From Candidatus Obscuribacterales bacterium (GTDB taxonomy: Bacteria; Cyanobacteriota; Vampirovibrionia; Obscuribacterales; Obscuribacteraceae), in NCBI GenBank assembly GCA_965228855.1, contig CBDDIJ010000003.1:960001-1024000 (forward strand): 64,000 nt of DNA, given 5' to 3'. This document shows positions 24,122-52,100 of the stretch, piece after piece. Within the stretch, counting starts at the first letter, position 1. Each line of letters begins with the position of its first letter. Under the pieces are notes generated by a model. It made no database searches. It worked only from the letters and a program-made list of their open reading frames with translations, and was not told the DNA's origin. Position numbers and translations under genes: made by a program.

Positions 24122-24141
24122 CTAAACCGATATCGGTTTAG
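24122..24141. repeat. Palindromic REP-like element, copy 1
   Basis: Perfect 20-bp palindrome CTAAACCGATATCGGTTTAG between convergent genes. Confidence 0.9.
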
Positions 24142-24168
24142 AACATAATCGAAGATTGCGTTGGCGAA

Positions 24169-25110
24169 CTAAGGCTTTCCTGTATCGACGATTTTGCCCC
24201 AGTCGTCCCAGTTGTTTATCAAGTTTTTCACAGAGTTCTGGCGGCGGCGGTCGTTAGCTATTTCGATATCTGTTTTTACGATCTTCAAGTTAGGTGGTAC
24301 GTTGAATATTGCAGGCTCGAGTGGAATCTGTCTTATCATGCCGGTATCCAGTTCCAGATGCGTCTCATTCTCAGTATTCAAAGTCAGTAGCTTAAGTGGA
24401 AACTCTCGACCAACGGGCAGTTTATAGATTTTGTTGACCACGATCGGAAGTGTTGGCGGTACGTCCGGCAAGTTCCATGTCCAATAGTCGGCTGACATGA
24501 TATCGCCTGAGTTGAAAAAGACAGAGTTGAAATTCTTGGTTGGGGATTTTTTTGCGTTCTGAACTGGGCTCGGATTTTCAACATGCAACTTGAACGCGTT
24601 TTCCGACAGATATCGTGTCGGTTTCTTCGGCGCGACGAGGAGAGGCAAATTTTCTAGGTAGCCTCCTAAGGCTGCTGTGCCAGACGCGAGGTCACCTTTA
24701 AAGGACCGTACTTCGGATTCGTAAAGTGTTTTGGATAGCGGATTGTATGCTGACACCTTCCAATCAGGCGCCTTACTGACGACCACGTAGCGATTGCCTA
24801 AACTCTCGATTCTGAATGCATCCCTTGAAAATATGATGCGGAACTTGCCAGCAAATAAGCTCGTTTGCAGGATTTCCCAACAGCGTCTTTCAGAAATCTT
24901 CTTAGATGTTGTGGTCGGGTTAGACTTCTGGTTCGCACTGGACATTGATCCGGGTCCACCAGTCTTCCCGGATTTTGCCAGTACAAATGATGGTGTCAGC
25001 AGCATGCATCCTGCGAGTACTGCGAAAATACGCCAAATGGTCGAAAAACTTCCAACGCCAACTTTGCTTAGACGCGAAGATGCTAAGTGCGAATATCTGG
25101 ATGTTCTCAA
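24169..25110 (-). CDS. Exported hypothetical protein
   Basis: 313-aa ORF with a signal-like segment (IWRIFAVLAGCMLLTPSFVLA) and a beta-rich body; starts 1 nt after the stop of the upstream small gene. Confidence 0.65.
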   Translation of the reverse strand: MRTSRYSHLASSRLSKVGVGSFSTIWRIFAVLAGCMLLTPSFVLAKSGKTGGPGSMSSANQKSNPTTTSKKISERRCWEILQTSLFAGKFRIIFSRDAFRIESLGNRYVVVSKAPDWKVSAYNPLSKTLYESEVRSFKGDLASGTAALGGYLENLPLLVAPKKPTRYLSENAFKLHVENPSPVQNAKKSPTKNFNSVFFNSGDIMSADYWTWNLPDVPPTLPIVVNKIYKLPVGREFPLKLLTLNTENETHLELDTGMIRQIPLEPAIFNVPPNLKIVKTDIEIANDRRRQNSVKNLINNWDDWGKIVDTGKP

Positions 25111-25111
25111 A

Positions 25112-25417
25112 CTATCTTCGCGACAATAACTTCGAGAGGATAATCAGACCAGCAATCAATCCGGCTCCTGTTCCGAATCGTTGCGCTTCCCATTCGGGAG
25201 TGCTGATCTCTGCTTTTGGTGGTGTCTTCACTAGTTCTACTTTCGGAACGATTTTAGTTCCTGAAAGCGTGTTGACGACTTCCCTGACTCCGTCGATGGG
25301 CGCCTGGATTAAGGCATGGCCAAAGGATTGAACGAATGCACCTGCGCATCCGGAGTTCAGCCCCGTGTTGTCGATATGTTCAGCCTCAAAGACTTGCACG
25401 TCGTCGTTTGCTGTCAT
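25112..25417 (-). CDS. Small hypothetical protein with C-terminal hydrophobic helix
   Basis: 101 aa ending FGTGAGLIAGLIILSKLLSRR; GAGGTGGA RBS upstream. Confidence 0.6.
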   Translation of the reverse strand: MTANDDVQVFEAEHIDNTGLNSGCAGAFVQSFGHALIQAPIDGVREVVNTLSGTKIVPKVELVKTPPKAEISTPEWEAQRFGTGAGLIAGLIILSKLLSRR

Positions 25418-25555
25418 TTCAAATCCACCTCGATATAGGTAGTGATATAAGGAGTGATACTCAATTATATAGGTTTTGTGTTGCTCGCGTCGTTAATCAC
25501 CTCATGATAACGTGTATAGTAGAAATATGCCTGTATCCAACTCCGTAGAGCGAGT

Positions 25556-28129
25556 ATGGTTGACGCTTTTGAGAAATGCTTTTCTTGTTTGAAGCCCAAG
25601 ACCCGCGCGACGGGCGGGTTCGTCACGCAGATGATCGACATCTGTCGATGCGGCGAGGTCTCAGACCTGACGTCGGCGACAGTCGAGACTCTGCCGACCT
25701 GTAGACAGTGCCGCAAGTCAATCAATCAGCGACGAGCTGGAAGCATGACTCAGTGGATTTTTAGGGCGGACTTTTGCCAGTGCGACGATCCAGAACCTGA
25801 GTTGAGTGCTCATCAAAAACCTCGAAGACATTCTTTCGATTTAGTAGATGATGACGGAGAGGAGTTAGATCTGAGCCGTCAAAGTTTTCCATCGGAGCGC
25901 TACCAGCCAAAGGTGAAGCTTGGAGTGGGGGCCTCCGGAACTGTTTATATGTCACGTGATCGTTTGCTTGGAAAGCGGGTCGCAGTCAAAGTATTGCACG
26001 AACTGACTGCCGGACAATTGATCGCATTTCAAGACGAGGCACGCACGACCAGCCGTCTTCATCATCCAAACATTATTCAGGTGCTCGATTTCGGACCGAC
26101 TGAGTCGGGAGTACCATATATGGTGCTGGAGTATATTGACAAAGGTGTTTCGCTCGAGCAATATATGCGCGCCAACGGTCCACTGCCATTGGATCGAGCT
26201 GTGCCTATCTTCGGAAAAGTTTGTTCGGCGCTGACTCACGCTCATGAATCGGGTGTGTTTCACCGAGATCTCAAACCGTCCAACATTCTATTAGCGGACA
26301 TCTCCGACGGCGAACCCGATGTAAAATTGATCGACTTTGGCGTCGCGAAAGTAAAGTACGAAACGCAGGAGCCGACAATTGTTCAAGGGAAGACGATTGC
26401 GGGCACTCCGGCATACATGCCACCGGAAATGGTGCAGGGCGAGCCTTTTGACGCGCAATCGGAAACCTACACGCTAGGCTGTGTCATATTTGAGACGCTC
26501 ACGGGCCGACCGCCGTTTATAGGAGCCAGCGCGATGGAAACGTTAGCTATGCATTCGCAGAGTCCGGCGCCAAGGATGTCGACTGTCGCGGAAGATCACT
26601 TCCCTGAATCGATAGAGTTGATCGTCGCACGTTGCTTAAGCAAAGCTCCCAAAGACCGATATCAAGATCTCGAGGAACTTCGAGAGGACCTCGAAAATAT
26701 TCTTTCGCCAAATCCGCTTCAGTTCGTCAGTACTGATGAATACAATGCCTTAGCTCTAGAGCCTGAGTATACGGACAGTGATCGGTCTGACCTTCAAGGG
26801 CACATAGAAATGTCGTTGGCGTCAGTTGCCAGACCACGCCCGATCAATCCCAAAGGTGTTTTCGGCGCGGCATTGGTAGTGATTTTGAGTGGTGTATTCA
26901 TAAGTATGGAAATAGTCCATCGAGCGCCTCACAACAAGAGTTCAGCTGCATCGCGTCGCACGGACGATCCTGTACGCGAAGCGCCGCTGAAGGCTATGTC
27001 TTCAGATCTTGCTACTTCAGACCACGATGCGATCGTAGAGCAAATGAAGAGCAACCATGCATTTAAGGTCGACGTTGCCTCGCAGACATGGACGGCGGTT
27101 GAGCGGCTGAGTGACAATGATTTGAGGCATCTGGCAGATCGCAGTCGTGACGTGGTTCGCTGTCTACGTCTGAATGGAGGGAGTATTGAGGGGCAGATCG
27201 ATTTGACTGATACCGCATATGGTTATGTCGCGAAACTGCCGCTGAGACTGTTTGATGCCGAGCACTCATCTATAAAGGATAGCGGTCTCCGGAAAATCGG
27301 AACCATGCATACTCTAAGAACGCTCGATCTTACCGATACCTCGATAACAGACAAGGGGCTGCGATATCTCATTGGCTCCAATATTCAGGATCTAAATGTT
27401 TCCAGCTGCTTGTTTCTTACGGAAAAGTGCGGGCGCAGCCTGAGTAAGATAGATAGTTTGCGCGTCTTAAACCTGTCTACTACGGATGTGTCCGACGAAT
27501 CAATCAAGCTGCTTGCTCGCTTGCCGCATCTTGAAGAGTTGAGACTTTCGAACACGAGCGTATCTGACTCGAGCTTGCGAAATCTTTCTCAGAATCGGAC
27601 CATCAAGCGGCTACAGCTTGGCGGTACGAAGATTACAATTGATGGAATTCGAGCGATCCGAAATTTGCCGATTGAACAAATCAAGGTTCAATTCTGTAAG
27701 GCGTTTGATGACGACTGCATGATCCTCGCTGCGAAGCAGTGGCCAAATCTCACATCCTTGGATGTTGATGGAACACCAATAACACGAAGAGGTTTAGCAT
27801 CAATAGGACAACTGCAAACCTTAGAACTTTTGACTGTCGCAAAATTGAATGCGTCGGATGAGGCTATGCGTCCATTGCTGAATCTGGAAAACCTCGCGAG
27901 TTTGAATTTGTCCGAGAATCCAGTATCCGACAATCTCATGAGCGGCTTTGCCAGGATGCCGAAATTGATTCGCGTTTGTTTGACTGGATGTGCGGGAGTC
28001 ACTAAAGCCGGGGTGGAAGGTTTGAAGGCGGCCGGTAAGGATGTGGTGCTTTCCAAAACCATCGGTGGCACAAACGTCAATCTGAACAAGGAGGCACTAG
28101 AGGCTCTTATCGTTCCAGGCGAACAATGA
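25556..28129 (+). CDS. Ser/Thr protein kinase with N-terminal duplicated Cys-rich module, TM helix and long LRR array
   Basis: Two CxxC...TQ(M/W)I...CxC units; GVGASG, VAVK, HRDLKPSN, DFG, GTPAYMPPE; TM GVFGAALVVILSGVFISM; about 10 LRRs (LRTLDLTDTSITDKGLRYL, LEELRLSNTSVSDSSLRNL). Confidence 0.93.
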   Translation: MVDAFEKCFSCLKPKTRATGGFVTQMIDICRCGEVSDLTSATVETLPTCRQCRKSINQRRAGSMTQWIFRADFCQCDDPEPELSAHQKPRRHSFDLVDDDGEELDLSRQSFPSERYQPKVKLGVGASGTVYMSRDRLLGKRVAVKVLHELTAGQLIAFQDEARTTSRLHHPNIIQVLDFGPTESGVPYMVLEYIDKGVSLEQYMRANGPLPLDRAVPIFGKVCSALTHAHESGVFHRDLKPSNILLADISDGEPDVKLIDFGVAKVKYETQEPTIVQGKTIAGTPAYMPPEMVQGEPFDAQSETYTLGCVIFETLTGRPPFIGASAMETLAMHSQSPAPRMSTVAEDHFPESIELIVARCLSKAPKDRYQDLEELREDLENILSPNPLQFVSTDEYNALALEPEYTDSDRSDLQGHIEMSLASVARPRPINPKGVFGAALVVILSGVFISMEIVHRAPHNKSSAASRRTDDPVREAPLKAMSSDLATSDHDAIVEQMKSNHAFKVDVASQTWTAVERLSDNDLRHLADRSRDVVRCLRLNGGSIEGQIDLTDTAYGYVAKLPLRLFDAEHSSIKDSGLRKIGTMHTLRTLDLTDTSITDKGLRYLIGSNIQDLNVSSCLFLTEKCGRSLSKIDSLRVLNLSTTDVSDESIKLLARLPHLEELRLSNTSVSDSSLRNLSQNRTIKRLQLGGTKITIDGIRAIRNLPIEQIKVQFCKAFDDDCMILAAKQWPNLTSLDVDGTPITRRGLASIGQLQTLELLTVAKLNASDEAMRPLLNLENLASLNLSENPVSDNLMSGFARMPKLIRVCLTGCAGVTKAGVEGLKAAGKDVVLSKTIGGTNVNLNKEALEALIVPGEQ

Positions 28130-28134
28130 AGTTG

Positions 28135-28162
28135 ATTCGTAAATCGATATCGGTTTACGAAT
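28135..28162. repeat. Palindromic REP-like element, copy 2
   Basis: ATTCGTAAATCGATATCGGTTTACGAAT, a 28-bp palindrome with one mismatch, 5 nt after the kinase stop. Confidence 0.85.
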
Positions 28163-28202
28163 GTGAGAGAAACCAAAAAAATTGTAGCGCTGAGTAAATT
28201 AG

Positions 28203-28230
28203 AATTCTTAACCGATATCGGTTGAGAATT
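28203..28230. repeat. Palindromic REP-like element, copy 3
   Basis: AATTCTTAACCGATATCGGTTGAGAATT, 28 bp with one mismatch, 4 nt after the ROK gene stop. Confidence 0.85.
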
Positions 28231-28234
28231 TGAG

Positions 28235-29233
28235 CTACTTATTCAAGTGGAGTAATTCATCGATGACGAACTGAGCCGCGCCGATGATGCCGGCTTGACC
28301 GCCGAGTGCGGACTGGCGGATCTCGATCGAGTCGCCGACAGTGGGCAGGCAATGGTCGATCACCATGTCTTCCAGCAAGCGGAAGTCTATGAATTCACTC
28401 AATCCTCCTGTTAGAACAAAGCAGTCCGGATTGAGAACGTGTGCCAAGTTAACTAGCCCGTGGCTCACGTGTTCGTGCCAGCGCTCAACAATTTTTTGAG
28501 CCATGAGGTCTCCGTCGGCGGATGCTGCAAAAATTGAGTGCGTGGTCAATTCAGTTGTTCTTGAAGCCAGTGGCGTTTGCTCATCAGATACGCCCTCAAG
28601 CAGATCCTTTGCTGTTTGAATCAAGCCTCGGCCAGAGCCGTATGCTTCCCAGCAGTCGAATAGACCACAGGTACAAAGGCGTTTGTTTTCCATCGCAATT
28701 TTGATGTGACCGACTTCTCCGGCTGCCCAATTGGAGCCGCGAAAGAGTCGTCCGTGAAGAACGATGCCGCCTCCTATTCCTGTACCGAGGGTTACAGTAA
28801 CTACGCAACGTTTGCTTCTCAAGCCCGTGACACGAGCTTCTGCGTATCCTGCTGCGTTTGCGTCGTTTTCAACATGAACCGGCAGCAATGTTCTCGATTC
28901 CATGACCGTTTTCAACTGCGTGCCTGACCAGCCTGGCAGGTTTCCAGTAGAACCTATGATTTCTCCGGTGTCACCATTTACGATACCAGCTGTCGCTATC
29001 CCTACCCCTGCTAGTACGTCGGTTCGAAACTTGTTTACTAACTCCACCAGACCATTGATGATGTTGTCGCGACCGTCGGGAGTGGGGATCTGCTGAAACT
29101 CCGTGATCATCTGATTGTCTCGTACTGCGGCCGCCCTGATCTTGGTTCCACCGAGATCAATTCCGAGGGCGGGCATATGCGACTTTGCTAAAGTATCGAT
29201 TTTGTTTGCTTCAACGCCCTTAGCCCTGCTCAT
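28235..29233 (-). CDS. ROK family sugar kinase (glucokinase-like)
   Basis: GIDLGGTK, VENDANAA, TLGTGIGGG, AGEVGH and the CTCG...CWE zinc motif. Confidence 0.92.
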   Translation of the reverse strand: MSRAKGVEANKIDTLAKSHMPALGIDLGGTKIRAAAVRDNQMITEFQQIPTPDGRDNIINGLVELVNKFRTDVLAGVGIATAGIVNGDTGEIIGSTGNLPGWSGTQLKTVMESRTLLPVHVENDANAAGYAEARVTGLRSKRCVVTVTLGTGIGGGIVLHGRLFRGSNWAAGEVGHIKIAMENKRLCTCGLFDCWEAYGSGRGLIQTAKDLLEGVSDEQTPLASRTTELTTHSIFAASADGDLMAQKIVERWHEHVSHGLVNLAHVLNPDCFVLTGGLSEFIDFRLLEDMVIDHCLPTVGDSIEIRQSALGGQAGIIGAAQFVIDELLHLNK

Positions 29234-29235
29234 TG

Positions 29236-31344
29236 TTAGATGCCGCCCAGCTGACCATGGTCCGGCGCTCCTTTGAGGACTAGTTTATCGAACGGAATCG
29301 GTGAGCCTATAAGCACATCAAATCCGAGTCTGTTCATGCCGCGAATCATATCGCGAGAAACAAGCACTTTGAAATCCTCAGGACCAATAGCTGCCGATAT
29401 CGACTTTTGATAGAACAGTTTATTGTTCAGGTTGTAGCCCAGACCACCGCCGATAGTGAGGTATTTGGTGACTTTTATGTCTCCGAAAAGGCTGCAAGAC
29501 CGCTGTCCCTGGATAAATTGGTCAAAAACGAACGGTGTGCTTCCGCCAACTTTCGACTGGGTGTAATTGCCCTGGAGCCGTACACGATTTAAACGCATGT
29601 CAAGGATCGGACCAATCTGTCCAAGGGCGCCTTTATCACCGGTCGAGTAAGCACGGGCTGACACGCCGCCGAAGATATATGATTTCACTCCCCACTTGTC
29701 GTTTCCGACGTTAAATAGAGGATGTGTTACCGCCGTGAGCTGTTCTTGAATTTTCAAAGCAGACTTGAAGACGGTTGAGGTTTGCGTGCCGCCAAACAGT
29801 TCTGCATATTGAGGGTTCAGGTTGATCAACTGCGGGTTATCCTGGTAGGCGCCAGCGGACGTCCTGAATTTAACCGCGCTGAGAAACGGCACGTTGCCTA
29901 TCTGGTGACTATCTACGAGCTCAGCGGCCAGCCTGGGTCTTCGGTAACCATACATGCCGTCTTCCATGAAGCGGTTAATTCCCGCGTTGAACTTGAAACC
30001 TTTGCGAATATTGTAGGCTGCGTCCGCAACCATCAAGTGGTTGACGGAGCCAGCGGCAATATTGATTTTCGAGCGCTTCCCTTCGTATGAAACTCTACCG
30101 GATAAACCGATGCCGGCACCGTCCTCATTTCTTGTGCCATCAAGATTGCGACCGCCAATCTGAAGCATCGGCGACCAGCTCAATATTCCTTTCTTGCCCA
30201 TGGCGTGATTGAACTTGGGACCAATGTGCATACCACCGATCTGCAAGTTGTTGGTTATGGAAGGCGAGATCGGAAAAACTACCGTGTTCTCGTTTTTTGA
30301 AATGTTTGCTGAAAATCTAGGCACTGGAATGTCAAAACTTCCCATTTGCAGTTTGCCACCAAATACGGTGAGGTTGCCGCCATCGGTTTTATACTTTTCG
30401 TAAACCATCTTGCGAGCCTTGAACTTGACTGATGGTTTGACCGGCACATATGCGTCTGGGTGGATCATCTTCTGCTGAACTTCAGCCGAGTAGCCGATGG
30501 GACCAATCATAGTGTTTCGCTGAATGTAGATAGGATCAGGCATGGTCAACGAACCTTTTCGGAACGCGATGCCTTCATCCGTACCATAACCTTTGCGAGC
30601 GACGACTGTGGCGCCGTTGATTTCCGTATCAGGGTTGGTTATTAAGTACTCGTCTTTGTTTACCTTAAACTTGAAGGCACTGCCAACGGTGACCTGACCG
30701 TCGCGGGTGATGCGCACGTTCCCTCTGGCATCGATTTCTTCATTGTTCTGATCATACAGAATCATGTCTGCTTCAAGTTTAGAGTTCTGACCACCTATGA
30801 TGGCGACAGCGTTTCCTGTGCCAAGGAATGTGTTTTTCTCCTGGTCGAATTCGGTATCGTCCGCGACAATCTGAATGGTTCCCTTGAGAGTAGTGTCTTC
30901 GTTTATAGACTCCGCCATTGCCGGATCTTCATCTTCTACATCAACTTCGACAGAGAACTTGTCAGGGGCGGTTTTCAAAACCGAGTTCGGCAGCAATGGA
31001 GGACCATCAGCAGACTCTTGAGGCGCCACAGTCTTGATGTCGCCAGTCTCTTCATCCGTTTTTTTTGCAGTATCGGATGCGGTGCTTGGCGTGGTGTCGA
31101 GCTTCGGAGTGAGTGGCAACAGCAGCGTGCCACTCGGAGCATCCGTGCCCGAGGTTGCGCTCAACGCGCCCGGTGGAAGGCTGAGCTGCAATGTTAGAGC
31201 CAAAGAGGCTGCCATAGCCGCAGACCGCAAAGTAGTTGCAGCGGTAAATTCCCTAATGTGTCCGAGGGTAAGCTTGCAACGACCGCCTGTCGTCGACGAT
31301 CGTTCCCCATTTGTCTTATTTGAAAGGCAGATTCGGTCTGTCAT
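29236..31344 (-). CDS. LptD/OstA-like LPS-assembly outer-membrane protein
   Basis: OstA-type beta-jellyroll (IVADDTEFDQ, LEADMILYDQNNEEIDARGNVRITRDGQ) followed by a long amphipathic beta-strand region. True start probably downstream of 31344. Confidence 0.7.
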   Translation of the reverse strand: MTDRICLSNKTNGERSSTTGGRCKLTLGHIREFTAATTLRSAAMAASLALTLQLSLPPGALSATSGTDAPSGTLLLPLTPKLDTTPSTASDTAKKTDEETGDIKTVAPQESADGPPLLPNSVLKTAPDKFSVEVDVEDEDPAMAESINEDTTLKGTIQIVADDTEFDQEKNTFLGTGNAVAIIGGQNSKLEADMILYDQNNEEIDARGNVRITRDGQVTVGSAFKFKVNKDEYLITNPDTEINGATVVARKGYGTDEGIAFRKGSLTMPDPIYIQRNTMIGPIGYSAEVQQKMIHPDAYVPVKPSVKFKARKMVYEKYKTDGGNLTVFGGKLQMGSFDIPVPRFSANISKNENTVVFPISPSITNNLQIGGMHIGPKFNHAMGKKGILSWSPMLQIGGRNLDGTRNEDGAGIGLSGRVSYEGKRSKINIAAGSVNHLMVADAAYNIRKGFKFNAGINRFMEDGMYGYRRPRLAAELVDSHQIGNVPFLSAVKFRTSAGAYQDNPQLINLNPQYAELFGGTQTSTVFKSALKIQEQLTAVTHPLFNVGNDKWGVKSYIFGGVSARAYSTGDKGALGQIGPILDMRLNRVRLQGNYTQSKVGGSTPFVFDQFIQGQRSCSLFGDIKVTKYLTIGGGLGYNLNNKLFYQKSISAAIGPEDFKVLVSRDMIRGMNRLGFDVLIGSPIPFDKLVLKGAPDHGQLGGI

Positions 31345-31769
31345 TCAGTCTCCATTGTGCACCAGCTGTGGTTCCATCGATAGTAATACGGAAAGCGCTG
31401 TTTTGCTATAAACATTCGTCACTCTTGGGCTATGACGATGGTGGCTTCTTCTGGTTCCACGCGATCGCGTCGACTCGCGTTTATTATTGGTCTTTCACAA
31501 AACCAAGCGCGGATGTCAACAATGGCTGTCAATACTACATGGATGGAATCGAGAAGATCAAGCCGAGTAATTTCAGTTACAAGAAGGATGTTAGCAGTTC
31601 CCAAATCATTTCATCGAAACTTAGGCTAAGAACCGCCTACAGACTACGTCTTGCCGTCGAATGATTTGGGATAGCAAAGATGAGAGATTTGTTATCGTCA
31701 AGATTATAATTAACTTGCCCGGCCGAGCTTACCACTGAGCCCTTTTTGGTTTTTAATTGACCTCATAAC

Positions 31770-32933
31770 ATGAACACATTCGTATTCCAGTCCCCAACGA
31801 AAGTTTGCTTTGGCGAGAACAGTGCTGCCACAGCTTTTGATGTTGTCAAGGATTTTGGCGGCTTACGGCCCTTGTTGTTGACCGACAAATTTCTCGTCGA
31901 TAACAATCTAATTGATTCTGTTCTTGACGGCCTGAAAGATGGTGGACTGCCCGAGCCGTTCGTGTTTTGCGATGTGCCATCAGACTCTGATGTCGATTGT
32001 GTGAATTCGGCATCGAGCTACGCAAAAGAAAATGGCTGCGACTCAATCATCGCTGTCGGTGGCGGTTCAGTTATGGACACGGCAAAAGCCACCAACATTT
32101 GTCTGTCTTTGGGCGGAGACTTGCTCGATTACCAGGGCTTGAACAATATCGAAGAACGATTGAAACCCCTGGTCGCCATACCGACTACTGCCGGAACAGG
32201 TTCAGAAGTTTCATTTGTGGCCATGATTAAGGATAGGGTGGAGCACAGGAAGCTTGTTTTCGGAAGCCGATTTTTAGCTCCGGACGCCGCTATTCTCGAC
32301 CCGGTTCTGCTGGTAAGCCTACCTCCCAAGTTAACCGCAGCGACTGGTTTGGATGCGCTAACCCATTGCCTTGAGGCGCTGGTCGCAACAGTGACAAACT
32401 CAGCGGTTTCTGATGCATTGGCACTCGAAGCGGCCCGCTTAATTTTCGATTACCTTCCTCGTGCCACCAAAAACGGTGATGATGTCGAGGCTCGCGGTCA
32501 GACGCTCGTTGCCAGCACCATGGCTGGAATCGCGTTTAGCAATTCAGGGGTAGGAATAGTTCATGCCCTGGCGCACGCAACCGGTGCGAGATTTCAAACT
32601 CACCATGGAATTACCAACGCCGTATATCTGCCGCATGGCATGCGCTTTAACATCGCATATTCAAGTGAGATCTATGGGAAAGTCGCTCGTGCACTTGGTT
32701 TTTCAAAGAGTTTGGATGATAATGAAGCTAGTGAGGCGCTCGTCGCAGCCGTTGAGCAATTACTAGAGGAGGTCGGGCTTCCTAACAATCTGAGGGCAAT
32801 TGGTGTGCCGGAGATGAAGGACGCGGAGCTGGATGAATGGGTCACTCTTGTAGCTGAGGATCCTGCCATCATTTTCAATCCGCGCGAAGCCACGGCTGAA
32901 GACATTGTCGCAATTTATAAGAGGGCGTATTAA
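31770..32933 (+). CDS. Iron-containing alcohol dehydrogenase
   Basis: GGGSVMD, PTTAGTGSE, DALTHCLE, HALAH and HG metal ligands. Confidence 0.93.
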   Translation: MNTFVFQSPTKVCFGENSAATAFDVVKDFGGLRPLLLTDKFLVDNNLIDSVLDGLKDGGLPEPFVFCDVPSDSDVDCVNSASSYAKENGCDSIIAVGGGSVMDTAKATNICLSLGGDLLDYQGLNNIEERLKPLVAIPTTAGTGSEVSFVAMIKDRVEHRKLVFGSRFLAPDAAILDPVLLVSLPPKLTAATGLDALTHCLEALVATVTNSAVSDALALEAARLIFDYLPRATKNGDDVEARGQTLVASTMAGIAFSNSGVGIVHALAHATGARFQTHHGITNAVYLPHGMRFNIAYSSEIYGKVARALGFSKSLDDNEASEALVAAVEQLLEEVGLPNNLRAIGVPEMKDAELDEWVTLVAEDPAIIFNPREATAEDIVAIYKRAY

Positions 32934-33349
32934 TGCCGTTTTTCAGCAGCACAGAAGAAGTTCAAAAAATTATGGAAGCGCTTTGGACCGAGATTCGCGA
33001 GAATCCGGAGATTGCGGCACCACTTCTTGATTCGAAGCTGATAGTTCGGTTTCATTACCGTGAACCCGAAGGCCGACTGACCATCGACTGCTCCGATGGT
33101 CATAATATGCTCATTATTTGGGGCGAATACGAAAAGAAGCCAACGGTCGAGATGTTCATGAAAGCGGATATCGCTCATCAATTCTGGCTTGGAAATGTAA
33201 ATGTCCCTGTCTATCTTATTTCAGGGAAAATCGTCGCGAAGGGACCGGTTAACAAAGCACTTGCGCTACTGCCCGTGGTGAAGCCGGCTTTTCGGATTTA
33301 CTCGAGTATTTTTGAAGATACTTTGAATCGTCCGCTGATTTCGGCATAA
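32933..33349 (+). CDS. SCP2 sterol/lipid-binding domain protein
   Basis: 138 aa with MKADIAHQFWLGNVNVPVYLISGKIVAKGPVNKALALLP, typical of the SCP2 C-terminal half. TAATG overlap with the ADH gene. Confidence 0.75.
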   Translation: MPFFSSTEEVQKIMEALWTEIRENPEIAAPLLDSKLIVRFHYREPEGRLTIDCSDGHNMLIIWGEYEKKPTVEMFMKADIAHQFWLGNVNVPVYLISGKIVAKGPVNKALALLPVVKPAFRIYSSIFEDTLNRPLISA

Positions 33350-33358
33350 CTCTGGCAC

Positions 33359-33386
33359 TTTCGTAAACCGATATCGGTTTACGAAA
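33359..33386. repeat. Palindromic REP-like element, copy 4
   Basis: Perfect 28-bp palindrome TTTCGTAAACCGATATCGGTTTACGAAA, 9 nt after the SCP2 stop. Confidence 0.92.
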
Positions 33387-33469
33387 CCGGAACCTTTACG
33401 TGCTGAGCGATTTCTTAATTGCGTTTGTCTGGTAATCAAGGCTGCCGAATGGTAACCTGAGCCTCTGTT

Positions 33470-34615
33470 TTGTATCAATCGGCGGAGTTGACTTTGGCTG
33501 GCGCTTCGGCAGGTCTTGTTGTTGCAATCGGAGAACTCGTCGTCGACTGGATTTCGACTAGCAAAGGCGGCGGCTTCATCGAGTCGAATACTTTCGTCAA
33601 AAGTTTAGGTGGAAATGCATCGAACGTAGCAATTGCTCTTTCACGATTAGGAACTCGTTCAAAAATTCTAGCCAAAGTGGGAAACGACATTCATGGCAAG
33701 TACTTGGTACATGTGCTTGCCAAAGAAGGTGTTGATACATCCGGCGTTTTCGTAGATGAAGAGGCTCCAACCGCTCAGTGTTACGTGTTCACCACTCTTG
33801 ATGAGGACAATACTTTTTTAAACTGGCCGCCCGGAAATGCTGCTCAGAGACTCACCACTGGTGATATCACTGAAGATCGGCTTGTCGGGGCATCGTGTAT
33901 TCACACGACTGGAATATCATTGTCCCACGAACCTCGAAGATCCGCAGTCCTAGCGACTCTAGAGCGAGCTAAACAGCTTGGAATCATGGTGTCCTTTGAC
34001 GCCAGCTTCCCAACTGGCGAGGGAAAAGGGTCGATTGAAGCGCTGGAAACCGCAGCGTCTCTGGCAGATGTCGTAAAGGTCAATCTACTGGAACTGTTTT
34101 TTTGGGCTCGACATATCGGTGCCGAGGTAAGAGATTCTGACCTTGATTTCATCTCTGCCTATGAGCACCCTCCATCCTCTGGTCAAGAGTCTAAAACTTC
34201 TTCTGTCGCACCTGACCTTTCTGAAAAACGAATAGGTTATCTCGCGAAGAGTTTGTTCTCAGCGTTCAAACCAAAGATCCTTTTAGTAACCATGGCCCAT
34301 CACGGCTCCCTGATTCTTACCGTCAACGGCGAGACCTGGGGAAACGCGTATGAGGTGCAAACACTCTCTGGCGTTGGTGCCGGTGACGCCTACATTGCGG
34401 GGTTCATTCATGCACTGATGCAGCGAGCAGATGGTTGTGATGTCGTGAACACCCTAGATTCACTCACCGGTGAGCAGATTGAGCGATGCAATAATTTTGC
34501 CAGCGCCGTTGGAGCGTTGTGTACAACTCATGTTAGCGCTTACGAAGGCTTGCCAACGCTACCGGAAGTGGAAGAATTGCTCGCGTCGAACCTTAGGTCT
34601 GCAGGAAATCGATAG
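33470..34615 (+). CDS. PfkB family carbohydrate kinase (fructokinase-like)
   Basis: GGNASNVAIALSRLG, VGNDIHG, VVKVNLLE and GAGDAYIAGF signatures. Start codon uncertain. Confidence 0.9.
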   Translation: MYQSAELTLAGASAGLVVAIGELVVDWISTSKGGGFIESNTFVKSLGGNASNVAIALSRLGTRSKILAKVGNDIHGKYLVHVLAKEGVDTSGVFVDEEAPTAQCYVFTTLDEDNTFLNWPPGNAAQRLTTGDITEDRLVGASCIHTTGISLSHEPRRSAVLATLERAKQLGIMVSFDASFPTGEGKGSIEALETAASLADVVKVNLLELFFWARHIGAEVRDSDLDFISAYEHPPSSGQESKTSSVAPDLSEKRIGYLAKSLFSAFKPKILLVTMAHHGSLILTVNGETWGNAYEVQTLSGVGAGDAYIAGFIHALMQRADGCDVVNTLDSLTGEQIERCNNFASAVGALCTTHVSAYEGLPTLPEVEELLASNLRSAGNR

Positions 34616-34634
34616 AATCGCGACCGACTAAATC

Positions 34635-35735
34635 TCAACAGTGTGAAGCCTGCTGACCGGCTACTTGCAAAACTTGTGGCGACACATAAGAAAGCACCTC
34701 TTTATTCGTGATCGGGGGCGAAGCAAATATGGCGTTGGTGAATCGTCCTTCTCTCCAGAATTCTCGGTCACTGTGATACCAGTGGAACGACAAATACAGC
34801 TGTAGTGCCTTTTGACTGATGCCTTGATATTCTTCGGTGATGAATGTGGTTGCTGATTCTTTCAGATTGGGGTTTAAATCGGCGCCAATGACTTTAGGTG
34901 TGGGAATGACTGACCTGTACTTGTGTATGTATGCTCCTCTTTCAAACAGAAATCCTGCGATTTCTACCACGGACAAGTTTTCTGAGAAACGTTGAAGCGA
35001 CTGGTTCGATTTGTACCAGAGATGATCGAAGGCCATCGCCTCTTGATCCATAATTCCAAAAAGTTCTTGTTGTTCAGGTGAGAGTCGATCAAACGAACGC
35101 GAATGTTCTTCCATGAGCGAAATAGAAATTATTTCTCCAGTCTTGGAATTTCGTACAGTCTTTTTAATAGTCCTCGGTTCGATAAGATGTTTTCCTGTGG
35201 CGGGTTGTTGTTCCACTCTTGGGTGCTGACGCGCCGGTGTCTCGCGACTTCGTTTTTTGACTACTTCTTTCAATTCGCTACAGTGAATCTCTTCCAGTGG
35301 TTCGTTTGCCATCAGGCGCGCTATTACGATTCCACTTTTTTTGATCATGTTCAAACTTGTCGAGTAGCACACCGACGAGTGTCTCTCGAACTCACTTGCA
35401 TTTACTGAGATACCGTTTTCCATCAAGGAAATCAGAAATAAATACTCAAGTGTCGACTCTCGCCGCATGCGATTGAAGAATGTTCCAGAAGTAAACGATT
35501 GTCTGTGCTTGCACGAGACACAAACAATTTTTCTGGTCCCAGCAGTTCTGACAAAATCGCGCCCTAGACATTTCTTGCAGCGCAGCGAACCGCTTAATGC
35601 CAGGCGTGAATACAACAAATCTTCTCCCTGCTCGATTGATGTAACCTCGCTATCGAACTTCTCTCGCATCAGCTTGAGAAGTGCTTCCTTGTTCTGGTTG
35701 CGAGGAACAGTATTTTTGGAATTACGCTTTTTCAT
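34635..35735 (-). CDS. IS1595-transposase-derived protein (Zn ribbon + HTH + winged helix; no DDE core recognised)
   Basis: CKKC...CVSCKHRQSFTSGTFF zinc ribbon; GISVNASEFERHSSVCYSTSLNMIKK HTH; C-terminal EYQGISQKALQLYL resembling the IS1595 YHxVSxKHLxxYL motif. GGAGG RBS. Confidence 0.65.
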   Translation of the reverse strand: MKKRNSKNTVPRNQNKEALLKLMREKFDSEVTSIEQGEDLLYSRLALSGSLRCKKCLGRDFVRTAGTRKIVCVSCKHRQSFTSGTFFNRMRRESTLEYLFLISLMENGISVNASEFERHSSVCYSTSLNMIKKSGIVIARLMANEPLEEIHCSELKEVVKKRSRETPARQHPRVEQQPATGKHLIEPRTIKKTVRNSKTGEIISISLMEEHSRSFDRLSPEQQELFGIMDQEAMAFDHLWYKSNQSLQRFSENLSVVEIAGFLFERGAYIHKYRSVIPTPKVIGADLNPNLKESATTFITEEYQGISQKALQLYLSFHWYHSDREFWREGRFTNAIFASPPITNKEVLSYVSPQVLQVAGQQASHC

Positions 35736-36167
35736 AACAGCCCTCCAGTAATAAAATCGTGAGCTCCTATTTTTTTAAACGTATTTCTGAACCAAAAAGT
35801 TCAATCGCACACCCCTCAAAGATGCACAAACTGTCAAGGCCCATGGAAATTTTATTTTGTGGGGCGTGTTAACTCACGGTCGTTGCGGATTGTTGAATGA
35901 GGTGACCTAGCAACCATCTCATCTCGCACTTTTGAACAAAGCGCATTATCAAAGTTCGCCGTCGAGCACTTGAGCACAAGGCTTTGGTGATGCCGCATGT
36001 GGTATCACATCTGTCTGGTTCTTAGTCGCACAATTGGGTTCTGAGAGACCGACAATTACCCCTGATTATTAACCGGATTAAATAAACGTCCGATCAACCT
36101 TCCCTGAAAGCCCGACTGCGTGAGCGATTTAAATGGTGTAATTCCCATGACAACGCTAGAAAATATT

Positions 36168-36458: not shown

Positions 36459-36484
36459 TTTCTAAAGCGATATCGGTTTAGAAA
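36459..36484. repeat. Palindromic REP-like element, copy 5
   Basis: TTTCTAAAGCGATATCGGTTTAGAAA, one mismatch, 15 nt past the yedF stop. Confidence 0.85.
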
Positions 36485-41229: not shown

Positions 41230-41247
41230 TAAACCGATATCGCTTGA
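41230..41247. repeat. Palindromic REP-like element, copy 6 (degenerate)
   Basis: TAAACCGATATCGCTTGA, 20 nt after the CPBP stop. Confidence 0.7.
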
Positions 41248-41363
41248 AGAGTTTAGATGCCGTGTTGCTTTGCCGCAATTGCCGGGCATAACCTCTTCAG
41301 CCCAATTAGATTTCCGTCATCGGAAACCGCCTGTCCTGCTACAACTCTACTGGGTTTCAAACC

Positions 41364-41918: not shown

Positions 41919-42110
41919 AAATCCAATCGCAAATCAGTCGGTCACTGATGATTATGAGAGGATATTCCACACACAACTGTTCGCGGATTGATCGAATAAT
42001 GCACGTTCTCGTGTAGAATCGCAAAATCTCTCTGTTTCGAGGTGTGCGAGTTGAGGTCCGTGGTCAACCTTCGCCGGCTTGCCAGGTTACTGAAAACCAC
42101 GGAGAGATTC

Positions 42111-42803
42111 GTGGCTATCGAACTGCACCCGGGTGTTTACGTCAGTTTCATTGCAATTAACCTCTGTTTGCTGTTCGCATACCGGGAACTAGTCCGTGTC
42201 CCCCATCAGCAAGAACCGATTCCTCCGAATTCAGCCCACTCCCGGGCTGATGTTTTTTCGGATGGAAAGCAATTTGGCTTTCCATCTCTTGGTTTAAGCG
42301 ATGGAAGCCAGTCTCAAACGGTTGAGAGAACCGAGCCGATTAGAACTCAAATGAGCAAAGTAGAACCGACCATCGAATCGAGTCGCTTAGCCGAATTGCC
42401 GAAACAAATTCAGTCTCGGAAAGACAATTCCTTAGGTCTTGCCCCCTCGACAGCCGGCGCTGCACTGGCTGCGGTATCAGAAAAATCGACTCCGAAAAGA
42501 GTTGCACAGAAGAAAGTAAGAAAGTCGCACAATGGTTTGATTCCTCCACCGCCACCGGGTGTGATGGTCGTGCCGCCTCCTCCTGATGCGCCATCGCTGT
42601 TCGCCGCAGGGACTGCCGGCAAGTTTGGCTTTCTCGTTCCACCGCCACCACCAATGGTGTTTGACTCCATTGGCGGTGACACAGCCCTTCAAACGAGTTA
42701 TCGCAAGACAACGCGTCATATCATTGACGGTCAATTTAAAAATAATGACCGCGCGAAAACTGTACACCGCGGTAGTTTCAAACAAGTTATCGTCAGCCGC
42801 TAA
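42111..42803 (+). CDS. Membrane-anchored proline-rich hypothetical protein
   Basis: N-terminal TM (VYVSFIAINLCLLFAY), three poly-Pro tracts (LIPPPPP, VPPPP, VPPPPP). GTG 42111 follows GGAG; the ORF extends to 42042. Confidence 0.6.
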   Translation: MAIELHPGVYVSFIAINLCLLFAYRELVRVPHQQEPIPPNSAHSRADVFSDGKQFGFPSLGLSDGSQSQTVERTEPIRTQMSKVEPTIESSRLAELPKQIQSRKDNSLGLAPSTAGAALAAVSEKSTPKRVAQKKVRKSHNGLIPPPPPGVMVVPPPPDAPSLFAAGTAGKFGFLVPPPPPMVFDSIGGDTALQTSYRKTTRHIIDGQFKNNDRAKTVHRGSFKQVIVSR

Positions 42804-42850
42804 ATCTCTTTTCAAGAGAAACTGGTTTTCCGCAAGAAGCGTCTTTTGTC

Positions 42851-42870
42851 GTAAACCGATATCGGTTTAC
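42851..42870. repeat. Palindromic REP-like element, copy 7
   Basis: Perfect 20-bp palindrome GTAAACCGATATCGGTTTAC, 47 nt after a stop codon. Confidence 0.9.
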
Positions 42871-42986
42871 TTTTCGATTGCTGGAAGTCGACTGGATTGT
42901 GGAGCGCAGTTCACGCCTCATTTTGAAATTCACAAAGTGCTTAATGTGCTACCTGGGAATAATGATTCTGCCGCTGTCTAACGGAG

Positions 42987-43763
42987 ATGTTCATGAGAAA
43001 CTACAAGACCAGTCTGACCCTTCTTTCCGCGTCGCTGTGCCTGGGTCTGTTTGCTTTACCAGGTCTGGCTTCACCGGAAGACGACGCAGCGATTCAGCTG
43101 TACAAACAAGGGAAATATGGTCCTGCCCTTGCCGCTTTTGAGGCTATCGATAAGAGGACCCCGCGGAAACCCCTTACACACTATTACATTGCGCTTTGCT
43201 GTCAATCTCTTAATCAGGTGGCCAGAGCAACTGCTGAGTACAAGTGGGTCGCGGACAACTCTCCTAAAGGGACATTGAAAGCGGCCGCACTGAAGGGTTT
43301 AGACAGTGTAAGCCGTTACAAGCAAGGCCGCGAACAGCAAGTTGCCGCCAGTGCCGCCAATACGGAGGCTGCAGCAGCGGCGGACGCAGCCAAGACGACG
43401 GCGGCCGGCGAGAAGACCGCATCTGGAACGAAACCCGGAGAAAAACTTCCAGCAGCCAAGCCGGATGAAGGCAAAGTGAAAAAGGTGCTTGCGTTTTCGA
43501 CTTCTTACGACCGCACCTGGTTAGCCTTTGAGCCTGGGTTCAATCAGGCAAAAGAAAAGTACAACGGGAAAATCGCTATTTCGCAGGTCGACACCGATGA
43601 CGAGGCGAGCAACGCACTCAAGGAAAAATACAAATTGAGTTCGTTCCCTGCATTCGTTTACCTAGACGGCGCCGGAAATGTTCTAAAGACCGAGAGCGGC
43701 TGCCCCGGTGACGGTGATTCATTTATTAATGAGATTGAGACCTTGAACAAGAAAAAGAAGTGA
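42987..43763 (+). CDS. Exported TPR plus thioredoxin-like fold protein (no CxxC)
   Basis: Signal peptide, TPR (THYYIALCCQSL), Ala-rich linker, Trx fold (KVLAFSTSY...QVDTDD...KYKLSSFPAFVYLDGAG). Confidence 0.75.
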   Translation: MFMRNYKTSLTLLSASLCLGLFALPGLASPEDDAAIQLYKQGKYGPALAAFEAIDKRTPRKPLTHYYIALCCQSLNQVARATAEYKWVADNSPKGTLKAAALKGLDSVSRYKQGREQQVAASAANTEAAAAADAAKTTAAGEKTASGTKPGEKLPAAKPDEGKVKKVLAFSTSYDRTWLAFEPGFNQAKEKYNGKIAISQVDTDDEASNALKEKYKLSSFPAFVYLDGAGNVLKTESGCPGDGDSFINEIETLNKKKK

Positions 43764-49112: not shown

Positions 49113-49120
49113 GCCGTCCG

Positions 49121-52100
49121 TTAAAAATCTACGCCTTCTTCAGGTTCCGCTGTGCGAAACTCCCCCGGGTCAGTCGGCTTAACGCCCTCCTCCGGTTTGC
49201 GTTCTCGCGGTTTTGCGATTCCCGATCCTTCGCCTGTCTCATTTGATTCTAAACCGATATCGGTTGAGGAATCTTCCCAAGGCGATGACGTTTGATTTGA
49301 ATCTTGTGAACCGGGGGCGAGGCGAGATTTTGACGACTCGGGCTGCTTTTGGTTGTCTGACGTGGAAGGCTTGCTAAAAATATTTTGCAGAGCTTGAAAT
49401 TTTGCCTGCACATCAGTTGGATTTGAAACAAAATACCAGGCGGACAGGCAGAATGTGAGAACCACCGAGACCACGACAATCATCGCGATTGAAACCCAAT
49501 TGGAGGTCGGCGGTGGAGGAGTTGCTTGCTGCTGACGTCGTCTTAGATCCAGCGGAGCCGGTTGTGTCTCCTCGTCAGTGGTGCTTATGCTGTCGGGCTC
49601 GTTCAGAGCGGGTTGTAATGAGCCTGGGCTTGTCATGGCTCGAATCTCTTCCTTCTCATCAAATGACAATTTGGGAAGCCCTGTTCCAAGCGCATTCAGT
49701 TCTGCAGAGGTTTGAACTTCGAAATTTGTTTGAGGGTCTGATGGGCTTGCCAGAAGATCTCGGACCGGGCGACGCTCTTCCATCTTCTTTTGATCCGCGC
49801 TCCAGGTGTCGCTTGTTTCCTCCTGAGTCGTCTTCTGATGAGTGCCGGAACTCGTCGACGCTGCTTGAGCCGCCGCTGCTGCTGCTGCGCTTCCTCGCCA
49901 TGCGTCGCCTGTCTGACTCTGACGATGACGTTCCGAGCCGCCCCAGGGCTGCGTTCCGCTAGATGCTCGAGAGGGATTCTGAAGGTCTGCTGCAGTCTGC
50001 GAGTCAGAACTTTGACCCGGTACTGATTCCGATTGACTTTCGCCCCAGCCTGGAATGTGTTGTTGCTGCTCCTTCGCCCAGGCTTCGTTCTCCTTGTTCT
50101 CGCCCCAGGAGTCACTGTGCTCGTCGATTGCATCAGTAGATTCCGTCGCCCATTGAAATGGAACGGGTTCGCTTGAGGCTGGACCGCTCGCGATTCCAAG
50201 CAGCTTATCGACATCCAGCTCTGAGACGGGGCAGCGTTGTAATTCAACTGGAAGATCCTCGTTGGGCAAATCCATTTGTACGCACTTGAGCCAGAAATGC
50301 AGTGCCGTTTTAAACTCTTGCGCACTTTGCCACCGTTTATCCGGATGCGTTTGCAGAGCCTTTTGCAGAATTTGATCAAGCATCTTGGTTTTTGGCAACT
50401 GAACTTCCATCTCTGCCAATGGTTTAGGCTTAATGTTCTCGTTGCAGTGCGCTGCCATCACATTGATTAATGTGCCTTTCGAATACGGCGGCGTGCCCGT
50501 CACCGACTCGTACAACAGGACGCCAAGAGAATACAGGTCGGAGCGCGTCGAAAGCAATTTGCCGGAGCATTGCTCGGGACTCATGTAGATAGGCGATCCT
50601 AGCGCTTGTCCAACATGTGTCAATCGCTGCATGTCACCTTGCACTTTGGCGATACCAAAGTCCAGAATTTTTACGACCATGTCGTTGTCGATTTCTTTGA
50701 TCAGAATTATGTTGCCGGTTTTCAGGTCTCTATGGATGAGACCGCCTGCATGCGCATAATCTAACGCGTCCAAAATCTGTGAAAGAATATCGACGATATT
50801 TTCGGGCTCTTCCAGCTTACCGAGTGCGCGAATGATTTCTTGAAGACTGATTCCGCGAACCCTCTCCATCACCAGGAACAATTGATCGCGCGCGCTGAAA
50901 GAGTCGATGTAACCGACGATGTTTTTGTGATCGAGCTGCGAATGTGTTTTGATTTCTTGTGAAAAACGCAGTACGTCTTGCGGGTTAGGTGAACGCAAAG
51001 TCTTGATGGCGACTAGCCTTCCTGTAGCAATTTGTTTTGCGCGATAGACGATCGCCATTCCGCCTTGACCAATCACATCTAAAACTTCATAACTATGAGC
51101 GAGTACCGTTCCGACTAGCGGATCGGTCGAGTATGTTGGAATCGCCGGTCTTTCTGGCGTTTCAGCGTGCCGGACAATCTGTTGGACAGTCGGCTGGGTC
51201 TTCGGCGCTGGCTGTTTCTGTTCGTCGTCGGTAAGACGCTCTGAGTTTGCCGGCAAAACGAACGGTGCAAGCTCGTATATGCTGTCAGTCGACCTGAAGT
51301 CCTGGAGCACATCTTCTTCGTCGTACTCGTAATCGTCCGACTTCTCCCTGTCCTCATCCTGATTCCCTTCGGTGAGCTGGAGACTACCTGCTCCAATGAA
51401 AATCTGGTCGATATCAGCCGTGGCGATGCCAATTCTGTTCACGTCAAATGGCTCAGCATCAGGCGGTTCGAAATTAGATTGTCCGGTTTCTACTTCACTT
51501 AAGATAGACTCGCTCAGCGACGTCTCTCCACTGGTTTGGAATTCGGTTTCAGTTTCTAAGATCGCCTCAGAAAGCGAGGCGCCGACCGGCATCTCTTCCT
51601 CGCCGCCTTCCAGACCCGGATTCCCCCATGGTAGTATCTGTGGTGCGTCGCTCTGCTCAGGCTGTTCCCCGGTAACAAATGCCATAGGGTCTATTCTCTG
51701 CTCACCCGTGATGTAAGCTTCGGCTCCGGCATCCTGCGAGTACAAAGGAGTAGGTATGGAGTGCTTCCCTGTCGTGAAGCCGGGAACGGGCTGGTCCGTC
51801 TCGTCAAATCCTGAAGTATTATGCTCTGCTGTGATTCGACCACTTTCGAAAATATCATTTTGATGACCAGACTTTTCTGATGTCTCCTGTATTTCTGAGT
51901 TGTCGTGCTCTGAAATTTCCGGTTCATTTCCGATCCGACCGTGCTCGGCAATATCCTGTTCACCCGTTATCGCACCGTGCGTTTCAGCCGGCGCATTGCC
52001 ACCTGAGCTTTCTTTTTTAAGCCAATCGGCGGTCTCTCCCTCGTTGGCTGTGGCACCAGATGCGGTGGCGAATGTTTTCTCGATTTGCTCGGCGTCGGAA

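Follow-up and report, generated by a model that had tools for sequence, protein, structure and literature searches.

A family of palindromes clustered around genes for an IS1595-derived protein with a DprA-type winged helix in the Obscuribacterales, and its possible connection to natural transformation

The stretch of DNA analysed here (64,000 nucleotides of contig CBDDIJ010000003.1 from a Candidatus Obscuribacterales bacterium, referred to as the window) contains a family of short palindromes and, among them, a gene at 34635..35735 on the minus strand, which encodes a protein of 366 amino acids (P0001). The genome to which the window belongs (G000) comprises 8.2 Mb in six contigs, C2 to C5 among them; the other G numbers denote related genomes, with G007 being about 94% identical to G000 and G002 belonging to the same genus. 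An independently assembled contig covers positions 23501-43500 of the window without differences and may be the source of this DNA. With up to three mismatches allowed, 10 matches to the palindrome were found in the window, compared with 0.42 expected, and none of 100 shuffled versions reached this number. All ten copies listed in an initial annotation, which had been made from the sequence alone, were recovered at its positions, including the three copies with an exact 16-mer (24124, 33365, and 42853).

Perfect palindromes of 20 bp are located at 24122..24141, between convergent genes, and at 42851..42870 in an intergenic region, and a perfect palindrome of 28 bp is found at 33359..33386, also intergenic. 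Two further sites of 28 bp, each with one mismatch (28135..28162 and 28203..28230), share a single gap between convergent genes and are 68 bp apart. The 26-bp palindrome at 36459..36484, again with one mismatch, lies 3' of yedF and is the nearest site upstream of the P0001 gene, 743 nt from its ATG. The coordinates 24122, 28135, 28203, 33359, 36459, and 42851 are the outer ends of these longer palindromes. The intergenic site at 41231..41246 has one mismatch in its core, which is exact in G007. As the initial annotation had described, these seven copies are close to stop codons (10-50 nt) and no U-tract follows the arms of the window copies; the eighth listed copy (49251..49266) is an exact 14-bp core in the 3' end of a Ser/Thr kinase open reading frame (ORF; 49121-53707, minus strand), 130 nt ahead of the stop codon. 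Two weaker sites are situated within ORFs, one at 9699..9714 (ORF 9304-10110, minus strand), which is unchanged in G007, and one with a TTAT centre at 23873..23888 (ORF 23770-24114, plus strand), the core of which is unchanged in G007. Seven of the eight copies fold as hairpins with −10 to −21 kcal/mol, and the window has no Rfam match.

The P0001 gene has no match in NCBIfam or Pfam. Its product contains a zinc ribbon (C53/C56/C72/C75), a helix-turn-helix region (about residues 92-142), a near-invariant motif (R162-S163-x2-T166-P167-x3-H171-P172-x2-E175) located where the DDE core of IS1595 transposases starts, a winged helix (about 209-279) behind a variable linker, and an IS1595-type C-terminus (289-353). 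A profile comparison (hhalign) with five IS1595 transposases of the same bacterial family gave P=99.8% and E=1.6e-29; the zinc ribbon, the helix-turn-helix, and the C-terminus are aligned, and the IELDE motif is not kept. The features shared with IS1595 elements (PF12760, PF12762; PMC8101967) are the zinc ribbon, the helix-turn-helix, and a C-terminal [YF]HGxSRKxLQxYL block. In contrast to these elements, the DDE core is absent and a single upstream palindrome is found instead of terminal inverted repeats at both ends. The IS1595 DDE domain (PF12762) has no match in G000, and no canonical IS1595 transposase was found there. The AlphaFold model of P0001 has a pLDDT of 93, and no RNase H-type run of strands is listed for it. 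Fold searches yielded no pdb match at E<=0.001; a wide search was filled by winged helices, so that the other parts of P0001 were barely tested in this way.

The protein family comprises 658 representatives at 50% identity (E<=0.001), 138 of which were aligned. In this alignment, the residues of the R-S-x-x-T-P-x3-H-P-x2-E motif are conserved to 94-99%. The winged-helix domain of DprA (DprA_WH, PF17782) was matched by 17 of 22 members, and the family profile matches the winged helix of the host's own DprA with E=1e-23. The matches of the DprA core domain (PF02481) in G000 are at other loci. In the corresponding helix, 111 of the 138 members retain a Glu plus a hydrophobic pair; these residues were mapped to the published interface by spacing only. 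Judging from its sequence, the 366-amino-acid protein is a former transposase, the cutting domain of which was replaced by a module including a DprA-derived winged helix. Outside the bacterial family, no member was detected among 300 further genomes of the phylum (E<=1e-15). Longer fused forms were likewise missing among 5442 candidates (E<=1e-10), which is weak evidence.

Several relatives deviate from this architecture. About 18 long, diverged copies of 390-530 amino acids with expanded linkers and an altered motif are present in G062 (L289-L300); in several of them K replaces the His of the motif, and some carry Cys-rich inserts. Shorter relatives without the winged helix, which consist of the N- and C-terminal IS1595 parts only, are encoded in G000 (C3:1367.8-1368.6 kb), where no accumulation of palindromes was seen nearby, and as similar ORFs of 240-290 amino acids in G002 and G013. 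They are possible intermediates or a sister family. Two tandem PF02481 matches are located at C5:225-227 kb in G000, in addition to dprA at C3:2057 kb.

Sites were counted with the exact 14-mer core AACCGATATCGGTT, with a mismatch limit, or with a position weight matrix (PWM). The exact core occurs 32 times in G000, compared with 0.08 (Markov order 5) or 0.42 (order 7) expected copies, so that the genome-wide excess over a Markov background, the lack of which would have spoken against a repeat family, is present. The family had initially been called dispersed, which has to be corrected: the 32 exact copies and 52 of the 58 sites with at most one mismatch are all contained in three clusters, which comprise 13, 13, and 26 sites (C3:955-1068 kb, which is that of the window, C3:1499-1551 kb, and C5:1113-1209 kb). 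Exactly three full paralogs of the P0001 gene are present in G000, one per cluster, with 42-44% identity to each other. The regions up to 90 kb from these paralogs, which make up 6.6% of G000, contain 59 of the 62 PWM sites. After thinning, 23 of 39 loci are situated within 20 kb of a paralog, and the density of sites drops with distance. The zone of sites around one gene copy, hereafter termed field, measures about 100 kb in the cluster of the window; a site without a gene copy is termed solo site. A fourth relative of the gene in G000 is a fragment without a field. Repetitive extragenic palindromic (REP) sequences carry a GTAG or CGTC foot beside an imperfect hairpin. The position matrix is devoid of such a foot, as had been noticed before, and the palindrome family is clustered around the gene and is not a dispersed REP.

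Gene-centred fields were also found in related genomes (G002, G012, G013, and G022), each with subtypes of its own, e.g., AACCGTTAACGGTT or ATCCGATATCGGAT. All 67 exact sites of G002 are located in one 210-kb domain around its C39 copy, the counterpart region in G000 being empty, and the second G002 copy is accompanied by 5 sites of a different subtype within 16 kb. In the complete genome G061, each of the 4 copies has 7-14 sites of its own subtype nearby. For G000, the flanks of the sites predict the field of origin for 27 of the 39 thinned loci (12.8 by chance). At 49 of 64 distinct gene loci, a site was present at most 330 nt upstream of the gene, compared with 19 of 2099 control genes; the 64 loci include orthologous near-duplicates, and one locus with a short flank was left out. 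This upstream site, usually 60-260 nt from the gene, was found in all ten copies examined in each of G019 and G030, and several loci lacking a match carry more diverged palindromes.

Among 41 genomes of the bacterial family, the copy number of the gene ranges from 0 to 17, with 13 genomes lacking it. The motif exceeded its reversed control in 23 of the 28 genomes with the gene and in none of the 13 without it, the kin in this comparison not being independent. Genomes with 1-3 copies can hold 66-85 sites, and G019 and G030 with 10-11 copies hold 21-25. The exact 14-mer was detected in 25 of 36 genomes of the family and in none of 24 genomes of other families. A metagenome search with P0001 gave one match, a locus at 94%, and none of 10 pattern matches in viral contigs was a relative. 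Palindrome and protein very probably form a pair, in which the protein is predicted to bind the palindrome. The earlier proposal of a site for a dimeric protein is supported, and the gene of the likely protein lies midway within the interval to which the palindromes had been assigned.

Core positions 1-7 show 19 substitutions in 779 comparisons between G000 and G007, compared with 10% in intergenic DNA, and positions 1-4 and 6, which were chosen afterwards, show 1 in 558. The dN/dS values of the genes are 0.09-0.13. Both the cores and the genes evolve under purifying selection. Between G002 and G005, sites in orthologous gaps have been retained while their flanks diverged, and 56 of 59 G000 sites could be aligned with G007, with no solo site newly gained or lost when compared in this direction. 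One G002 site in a conserved gene is built of synonymous codons and is missing in all five orthologues; the G000 fields contain four sites with at most one mismatch inside coding sequences, where 0.28 would be expected, although the ORF around one of the four may be over-called. Therefore, sites can arise by point mutation and be kept as DNA sequence. Only 5 of 50 intergenic sites in G000 are located in divergent gaps, which account for 24% of all gaps. Tandem arrays of sites with a period of 32-52 bp occur, and indels are about twice as dense beside sites.

The initial annotation had regarded the symmetry itself as selected, which holds for part of the lineages: G019 and G061 show a strong excess of arm symmetry over that of the consensus, which is weak in G000 and absent, relative to shuffled half-sites, in G002 and G013. 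Perfect arms of 20-32 bp at the G019 copies have a different sequence at each copy. Upstream of the copies L240-L249 (G019), L229, L004, L239, and L286, perfect palindromes of 46-64 bp were observed, also with arm sequences varying per copy, from which it follows that in some lineages the arms continue to be corrected against each other. Flank changes between G000 and G007 gained and lost pairing about equally (21 vs 20). The assumption of a mobilised element was borne out in part, gene and site being of transposon origin. At 94 solo sites, however, target-site duplications were not detected (the highest count, 6 of 94 among 361 offset pairs for each length, was not regarded as significant); the test for an 8-bp duplication is weak, the sites and gene copies being old and their ends undefined. 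In a quick tree, the three G000 paralogs form one clade, and so do nine G030-type and six G019 copies. Because of these genome-specific clades, the copies are considered to have spread on after the loss of the DDE core. Three paralog pairs of G030 have ragged ends, about 45-250 nt upstream of the site and 6-350 nt past the stop codon, without a terminal repeat, and a conserved 3' end was not found among 20 gene copies.

Upstream of the P0001 gene, a promoter-like motif of the form TTGAACTTTTT-N12-CGT was identified at 35777..35804 on the minus strand. We take it to be of the extracytoplasmic function (ECF) sigma factor type, which fits the ECF sigma gene among its matches. The strict motif (TTGAACTTTTT-N12-14-CGT) has 25 matches at 22 genes in G000, among them the ECF sigma gene, comEC, yraN, radC, priA, a PLD-like gene, two DUF4351 genes, two DUF6088 genes, and the P0001 gene. 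Places of the strict motif include C2:1949.7 kb, C5:1399.5 kb, C3:2696.5 kb, C3:2886.6 kb, C3:50.4 kb, and C2:103 kb. A looser form precedes 52 of the 64 gene loci, compared with 42 of 2099 controls. The TTGAACTTTTT regulon may be a candidate ECF-sigma and competence regulon of the Obscuribacterales, which has been joined by mobile-looking genes. In G000, ComM is encoded at C2:1516909-1518513, and YraN and ComEC are present as well.

In two species, the winged helix of DprA has been found to bind ComM, recruiting it for branch migration, and that of Helicobacter pylori was reported not to bind DNA, according to the accessible text of 10.1101/2024.10.21.619469. YraN is described as the nuclease partner of ComM in the accessible part of 10.1101/2024.02.06.579203. 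In the literature as far as available, transformation deletes insertions more efficiently than it acquires them. Mobile elements are presented as countering this deletion in the accessible text of PMC4774983. The zinc ribbon and the helix-turn-helix of P0001 are predicted, with high probability, to read the half-site CGGTT-x-A, and the palindrome would be bound by a dimer. The protein would work mostly in cis, near its place of synthesis; a cis preference is a property of transposases. The winged helix would capture ComM at the sites as DprA does, a contact that is probable by analogy with DprA. The bound protein could then trap or stall D-loop extension by ComM and YraN, for which a catalytic site would be unnecessary, which would guard the gene against being exchanged for an empty allele. 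The sites favoured would be those in linkage with the gene, and their benefit would decrease with distance. Tandem duplication and point mutation, probably along with local copying, would enlarge the fields, and host recombination would move gene copies, leaving ragged ends. To the whole chain, in which the protein binds its field, docks ComM, and alters recombination around its own locus, most likely by blocking it, we assign a probability of roughly 0.42. Protection of this kind would account for selection on gene and sites without a fixed chromosomal place, for new fields at new copies, and for the promoter. Whether this represents a new class of selfish elements appears evenly balanced: a transposase would have exchanged its catalytic core for the DprA winged helix of the host and would be switched on with the competence genes, its field of 100-200 kb capturing ComM so that local transformation is blocked or steered, and each copy would build a new field with a co-evolving subtype.

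A number of results weigh against local protection from transformation. Fields are wide, with a median distance of 13-38 kb and up to 145 kb; transformation events in the cited papers, as far as their text is accessible, extend "up to several kb", and imports in Streptococcus pneumoniae have a median of 6.6 kb. Because fields are wider than these recombination events, far sites need bridging or another reason. In G061, 21 of 37 exact sites are more than 90 kb away from any of the 4 copies. The 10 copies of G019 persist with about one site each (11 sites in all within the 5-kb loci), and 5 of the 28 gene-bearing genomes show no motif excess. The excess of sites in coding sequences fades at up to two mismatches (5 vs 2.4). 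Asymmetric sites are co-oriented in 2 of 10 fields (p=0.004 and 0.009), and in G022 such variants span 160 kb, with an orientation independent of the neighbouring gene direction; co-oriented sites point to copying and less to site-by-site selection. Far sites, field-free G019 copies, and co-oriented variants are poorly explained by a local block. In addition, comM, dprA, a comEA-like gene, and two of the three G000 paralogs are devoid of the promoter motif, P0001 itself remains below a PF17782 match, and the C5 paralog is devoid of the Glu retained by most members. The co-occurrence with ComM does not discriminate, because ComM is present in 38 of 41 family genomes, whether or not they carry the gene.

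An effect of opposite sign is also conceivable, in which the protein would load ComM at the sites and promote recombination in the field, and the uptake of self-DNA would copy sites into neighbouring gaps, homogenise them, and carry the gene plus its site to new loci via short homology at the palindrome. The DprA winged helix recruits ComM for promoting branch migration, and the field-specific subtypes, the co-oriented variants across 160 kb in G022, the tandem arrays, the dense indels next to sites, the ragged ends of the G030 pairs, and the genome-specific clades would all fit. However, self-acquisition would probably be hard, as incoming DNA is single-stranded and a gene-free recipient would be without the protein; moreover, no solo site was gained or lost in the one-directional alignment with G007, and 8 of 10 fields show no orientation bias. 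This explanation is considered unlikely. Distinctly improbable is a host-domesticated chromosome organiser, i.e., a dead transposase that pairs distant sites and loops a domain of 100-200 kb, CENP-B-like or MatP-like, in a lineage devoid of ParB. Such a role is in line with the strong purifying selection on gene and cores, the retention of sites in orthologous gaps of G002 and G005 while the flanks diverge, the position of one G000 field at a GC-skew switch, and the scarcity of ParB_N, which was detected in 6 of 61 class genomes and is restricted in G000 to a 182-kb contig. In the accessible text of PMC8997354, CENP-B is a domesticated transposase without activity, which binds boxes in arrays. 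Yet the position of the fields varies with respect to dnaA and the skew switch, the gene varies from 0 to 17 copies and is missing in 13 of 41 family genomes, and the DprA winged helix and the competence-type promoter would be left unexplained. The nucleoid or ParB-like function suggested initially is unsupported as stated, no chromosomal ParB having been found and the clusters tracking the gene instead of origin or terminus.

A slightly lower probability is given to a REPIN-RAYT-like replicator with new chemistry, in which the R-S-x-x-T-P-x3-H-P-x2-E motif would be an unrecognised active site nicking and copying the palindrome in cis. The high conservation of the motif, the distance decay, subtypes, and co-orientation, which fit cis copying, and the perfect G019 arms differing per copy, which suggest hairpin-type processing, favour it, as does the lack of a canonical IS1595 transposase in G000 for action in trans. 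It is opposed by the absence of an invariant Tyr or acidic triad, the replacement of the His in several G062 copies, the missing target duplication, and the sites made of synonymous codons, which need no copying; fold searches gave winged-helix matches only, the other parts of the protein being barely tested. Very unlikely is an autoregulatory operator with a decoy sink, where the upstream site would repress the gene and further sites would be host-selected to soak up a costly cis-acting protein. The single site 60-260 nt upstream of most copies, the counts of up to 66-85 sites in genomes with 1-3 copies and of 21-25 sites in G019 and G030 with 10-11 copies, and the rarity of sites in divergent gaps speak for it, but loss of the gene would be easier for a host than building 80 sites, and dN/dS is nevertheless about 0.1. 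The window gene is also without a site within 330 nt, and where present, the site is well upstream of the −35 motif at a variable distance. Scarcely credible is, finally, the view that the palindromes are ordinary REPs or hairpins working at the RNA level, as terminators or for mRNA stabilisation, and that the gene is a bystander. The position of seven window copies shortly after stop codons, the predicted folding of seven of eight, and the excess arm symmetry in G019 and G061 are as expected for a hairpin, whereas the missing U-tract, the confinement of sites to 6.6% of G000, the balanced gain and loss of pairing, the orientation in G022, which is independent of gene direction, and the motif excess that tracks the gene across genomes are not. 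The mRNA 3' structure considered in the initial annotation is poorly supported, given the missing U-tract and the occurrence of sites in divergent gaps and inside genes as well.

Of the known systems, REPIN-RAYT is similar in that a gene of transposase origin is maintained by purifying selection and has a particular class of short extragenic palindromes as its partner, repeats adjoin the gene, and one genome can hold several such pairs, as far as described in the accessible text of PMC3116915 and 10.1101/2021.07.10.451892. RAYT proteins are IS200-type HUH/Tyr enzymes there, and REP doublets are randomly distributed extragenically. In contrast, the system described here has an IS1595 ancestor, no recognisable catalytic core, an inserted DprA winged helix, loopless palindromes, sites confined to gene fields and in some cases built from codons, and a copy number of up to 17; neither an invariant Tyr nor HUH (Y1 features) was found among the conserved columns. 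With DprA, ComM, and YraN, the system has in common the winged helix, which is near that of the host DprA, and the promoter motif shared by the gene, comEC, and yraN. DprA itself brings ComM to incoming single-stranded DNA through its core domain, according to the accessible text of 10.1101/2024.10.21.619469 and 10.1101/2024.02.06.579203. In the present protein, the helix is joined to what is predicted to be a sequence-specific binder of double-stranded DNA and would thereby sit at fixed chromosomal sites. The proposed aim, escape from deletion, resembles that of transformation-inhibiting mobile elements, the known tactics of which act cell-wide in the accessible text of PMC4774983 (insertion into comM, comYC, comFA, and radC; secreted DNases). 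By comparison, the effect proposed here would be local, with competence intact elsewhere. The sites of MatP (matS) are confined to the terminus region and those of ParB (parS) are near the origin. The likeness to both pairs and to CENP-B and its box consists in the many short boxes in one chromosomal domain; CENP-B, also a dead transposase in the accessible text of PMC8997354, is an analogue only. Unlike in these three, the domain is set here by the position of the gene instead of by origin, terminus, or centromere, and is rebuilt at each new copy.

In the literature searched, subscription journals and supplements excluded, no description of the gene-palindrome system was found, and the exact 14-mer was in none of the literature matches listed. 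The initial view of an undescribed repeat family is supported. The description of the gene and its fields is firmly founded, and they seem to represent a new kind of system; for transformation, the proposed mechanism is a specific inference that can be tested. If the mechanism is correct, the gene would control homologous recombination in its own neighbourhood only, unlike the cell-wide counter-measures, the "chromosome curing" theory of transformation would become testable at one locus, and the bacterial chromosome would carry movable, gene-centred recombination domains. The system also illustrates how 10-90 binding sites can newly build up into a field around a gene, while protein and site subtype co-diverge across hundreds of natural variants, and a sequence-addressed ComM adaptor could serve as a tool for local recombination control. 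Even without the link to transformation, no counterpart was found in the literature searched for an inactive transposase at the centre of a movable domain in a lineage devoid of ParB.

Several other interpretations of the sites were dropped. A matS-like terminus organiser had been suggested by a cluster at the GC-skew switch, but the main cluster of G061 is about 450 kb from dnaA. The genes of this cluster map to a G000 region without sites, and dnaA of G000 is located at C2:793 kb, with no cluster on C2. A regulon of related genes was rejected, the cluster genes being functionally mixed and different between genomes, and so was parS, with only a weak ParB_N match on the 182-kb contig and no chromosomal ParB. 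This contig (C4) has a higher GC content, carries ParA-like and ParB_N-bearing genes, and is probably a plasmid or an integrative element; an SMC gene is present at C3:278-281 kb. In the class, chromosomes as large as 9 Mb are apparently segregated with no need for ParB. Methylation at the central GATATC, which the initial annotation had raised, is probably not what matters, as the centre is often TTAT, ATAA, or TTAA instead. The half-site was not confirmed as an IS1595 terminal repeat, one inverted pair, unlike the site, being found near one of five IS1595 ORFs. A decay of the field around a split gene in G061 was withdrawn, 7 good sites being present within 10 kb; this gene may have been split only recently, or the split may reflect a sequence error.

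The remaining genes of the window include selD followed by the selenium metabolism gene yedF (36500-38418, minus strand), and five Ser/Thr kinase genes, three of them in tandem (10272-15968, 25556-28129, and 49121-53707). An ORF of 2408 amino acids at 16094-23320 (minus strand) lies in a stretch of higher GC content and has no NCBIfam match. Other spaced palindromes are also regionally confined in G000 (C2:1488 kb, C2:907 kb, and C2:80 kb). All 13 copies of TTTGCA-N8-TGCAAA are found within 200 kb, together with all 11 copies of AGCCTC-N6-GAGGCT, and CTGCAA-N6-TTGCAG (58 copies) and GGATTT-N4-AAATCC are likewise regionally clustered. The Obscuribacterales lineage may hold further systems of a gene and its field.

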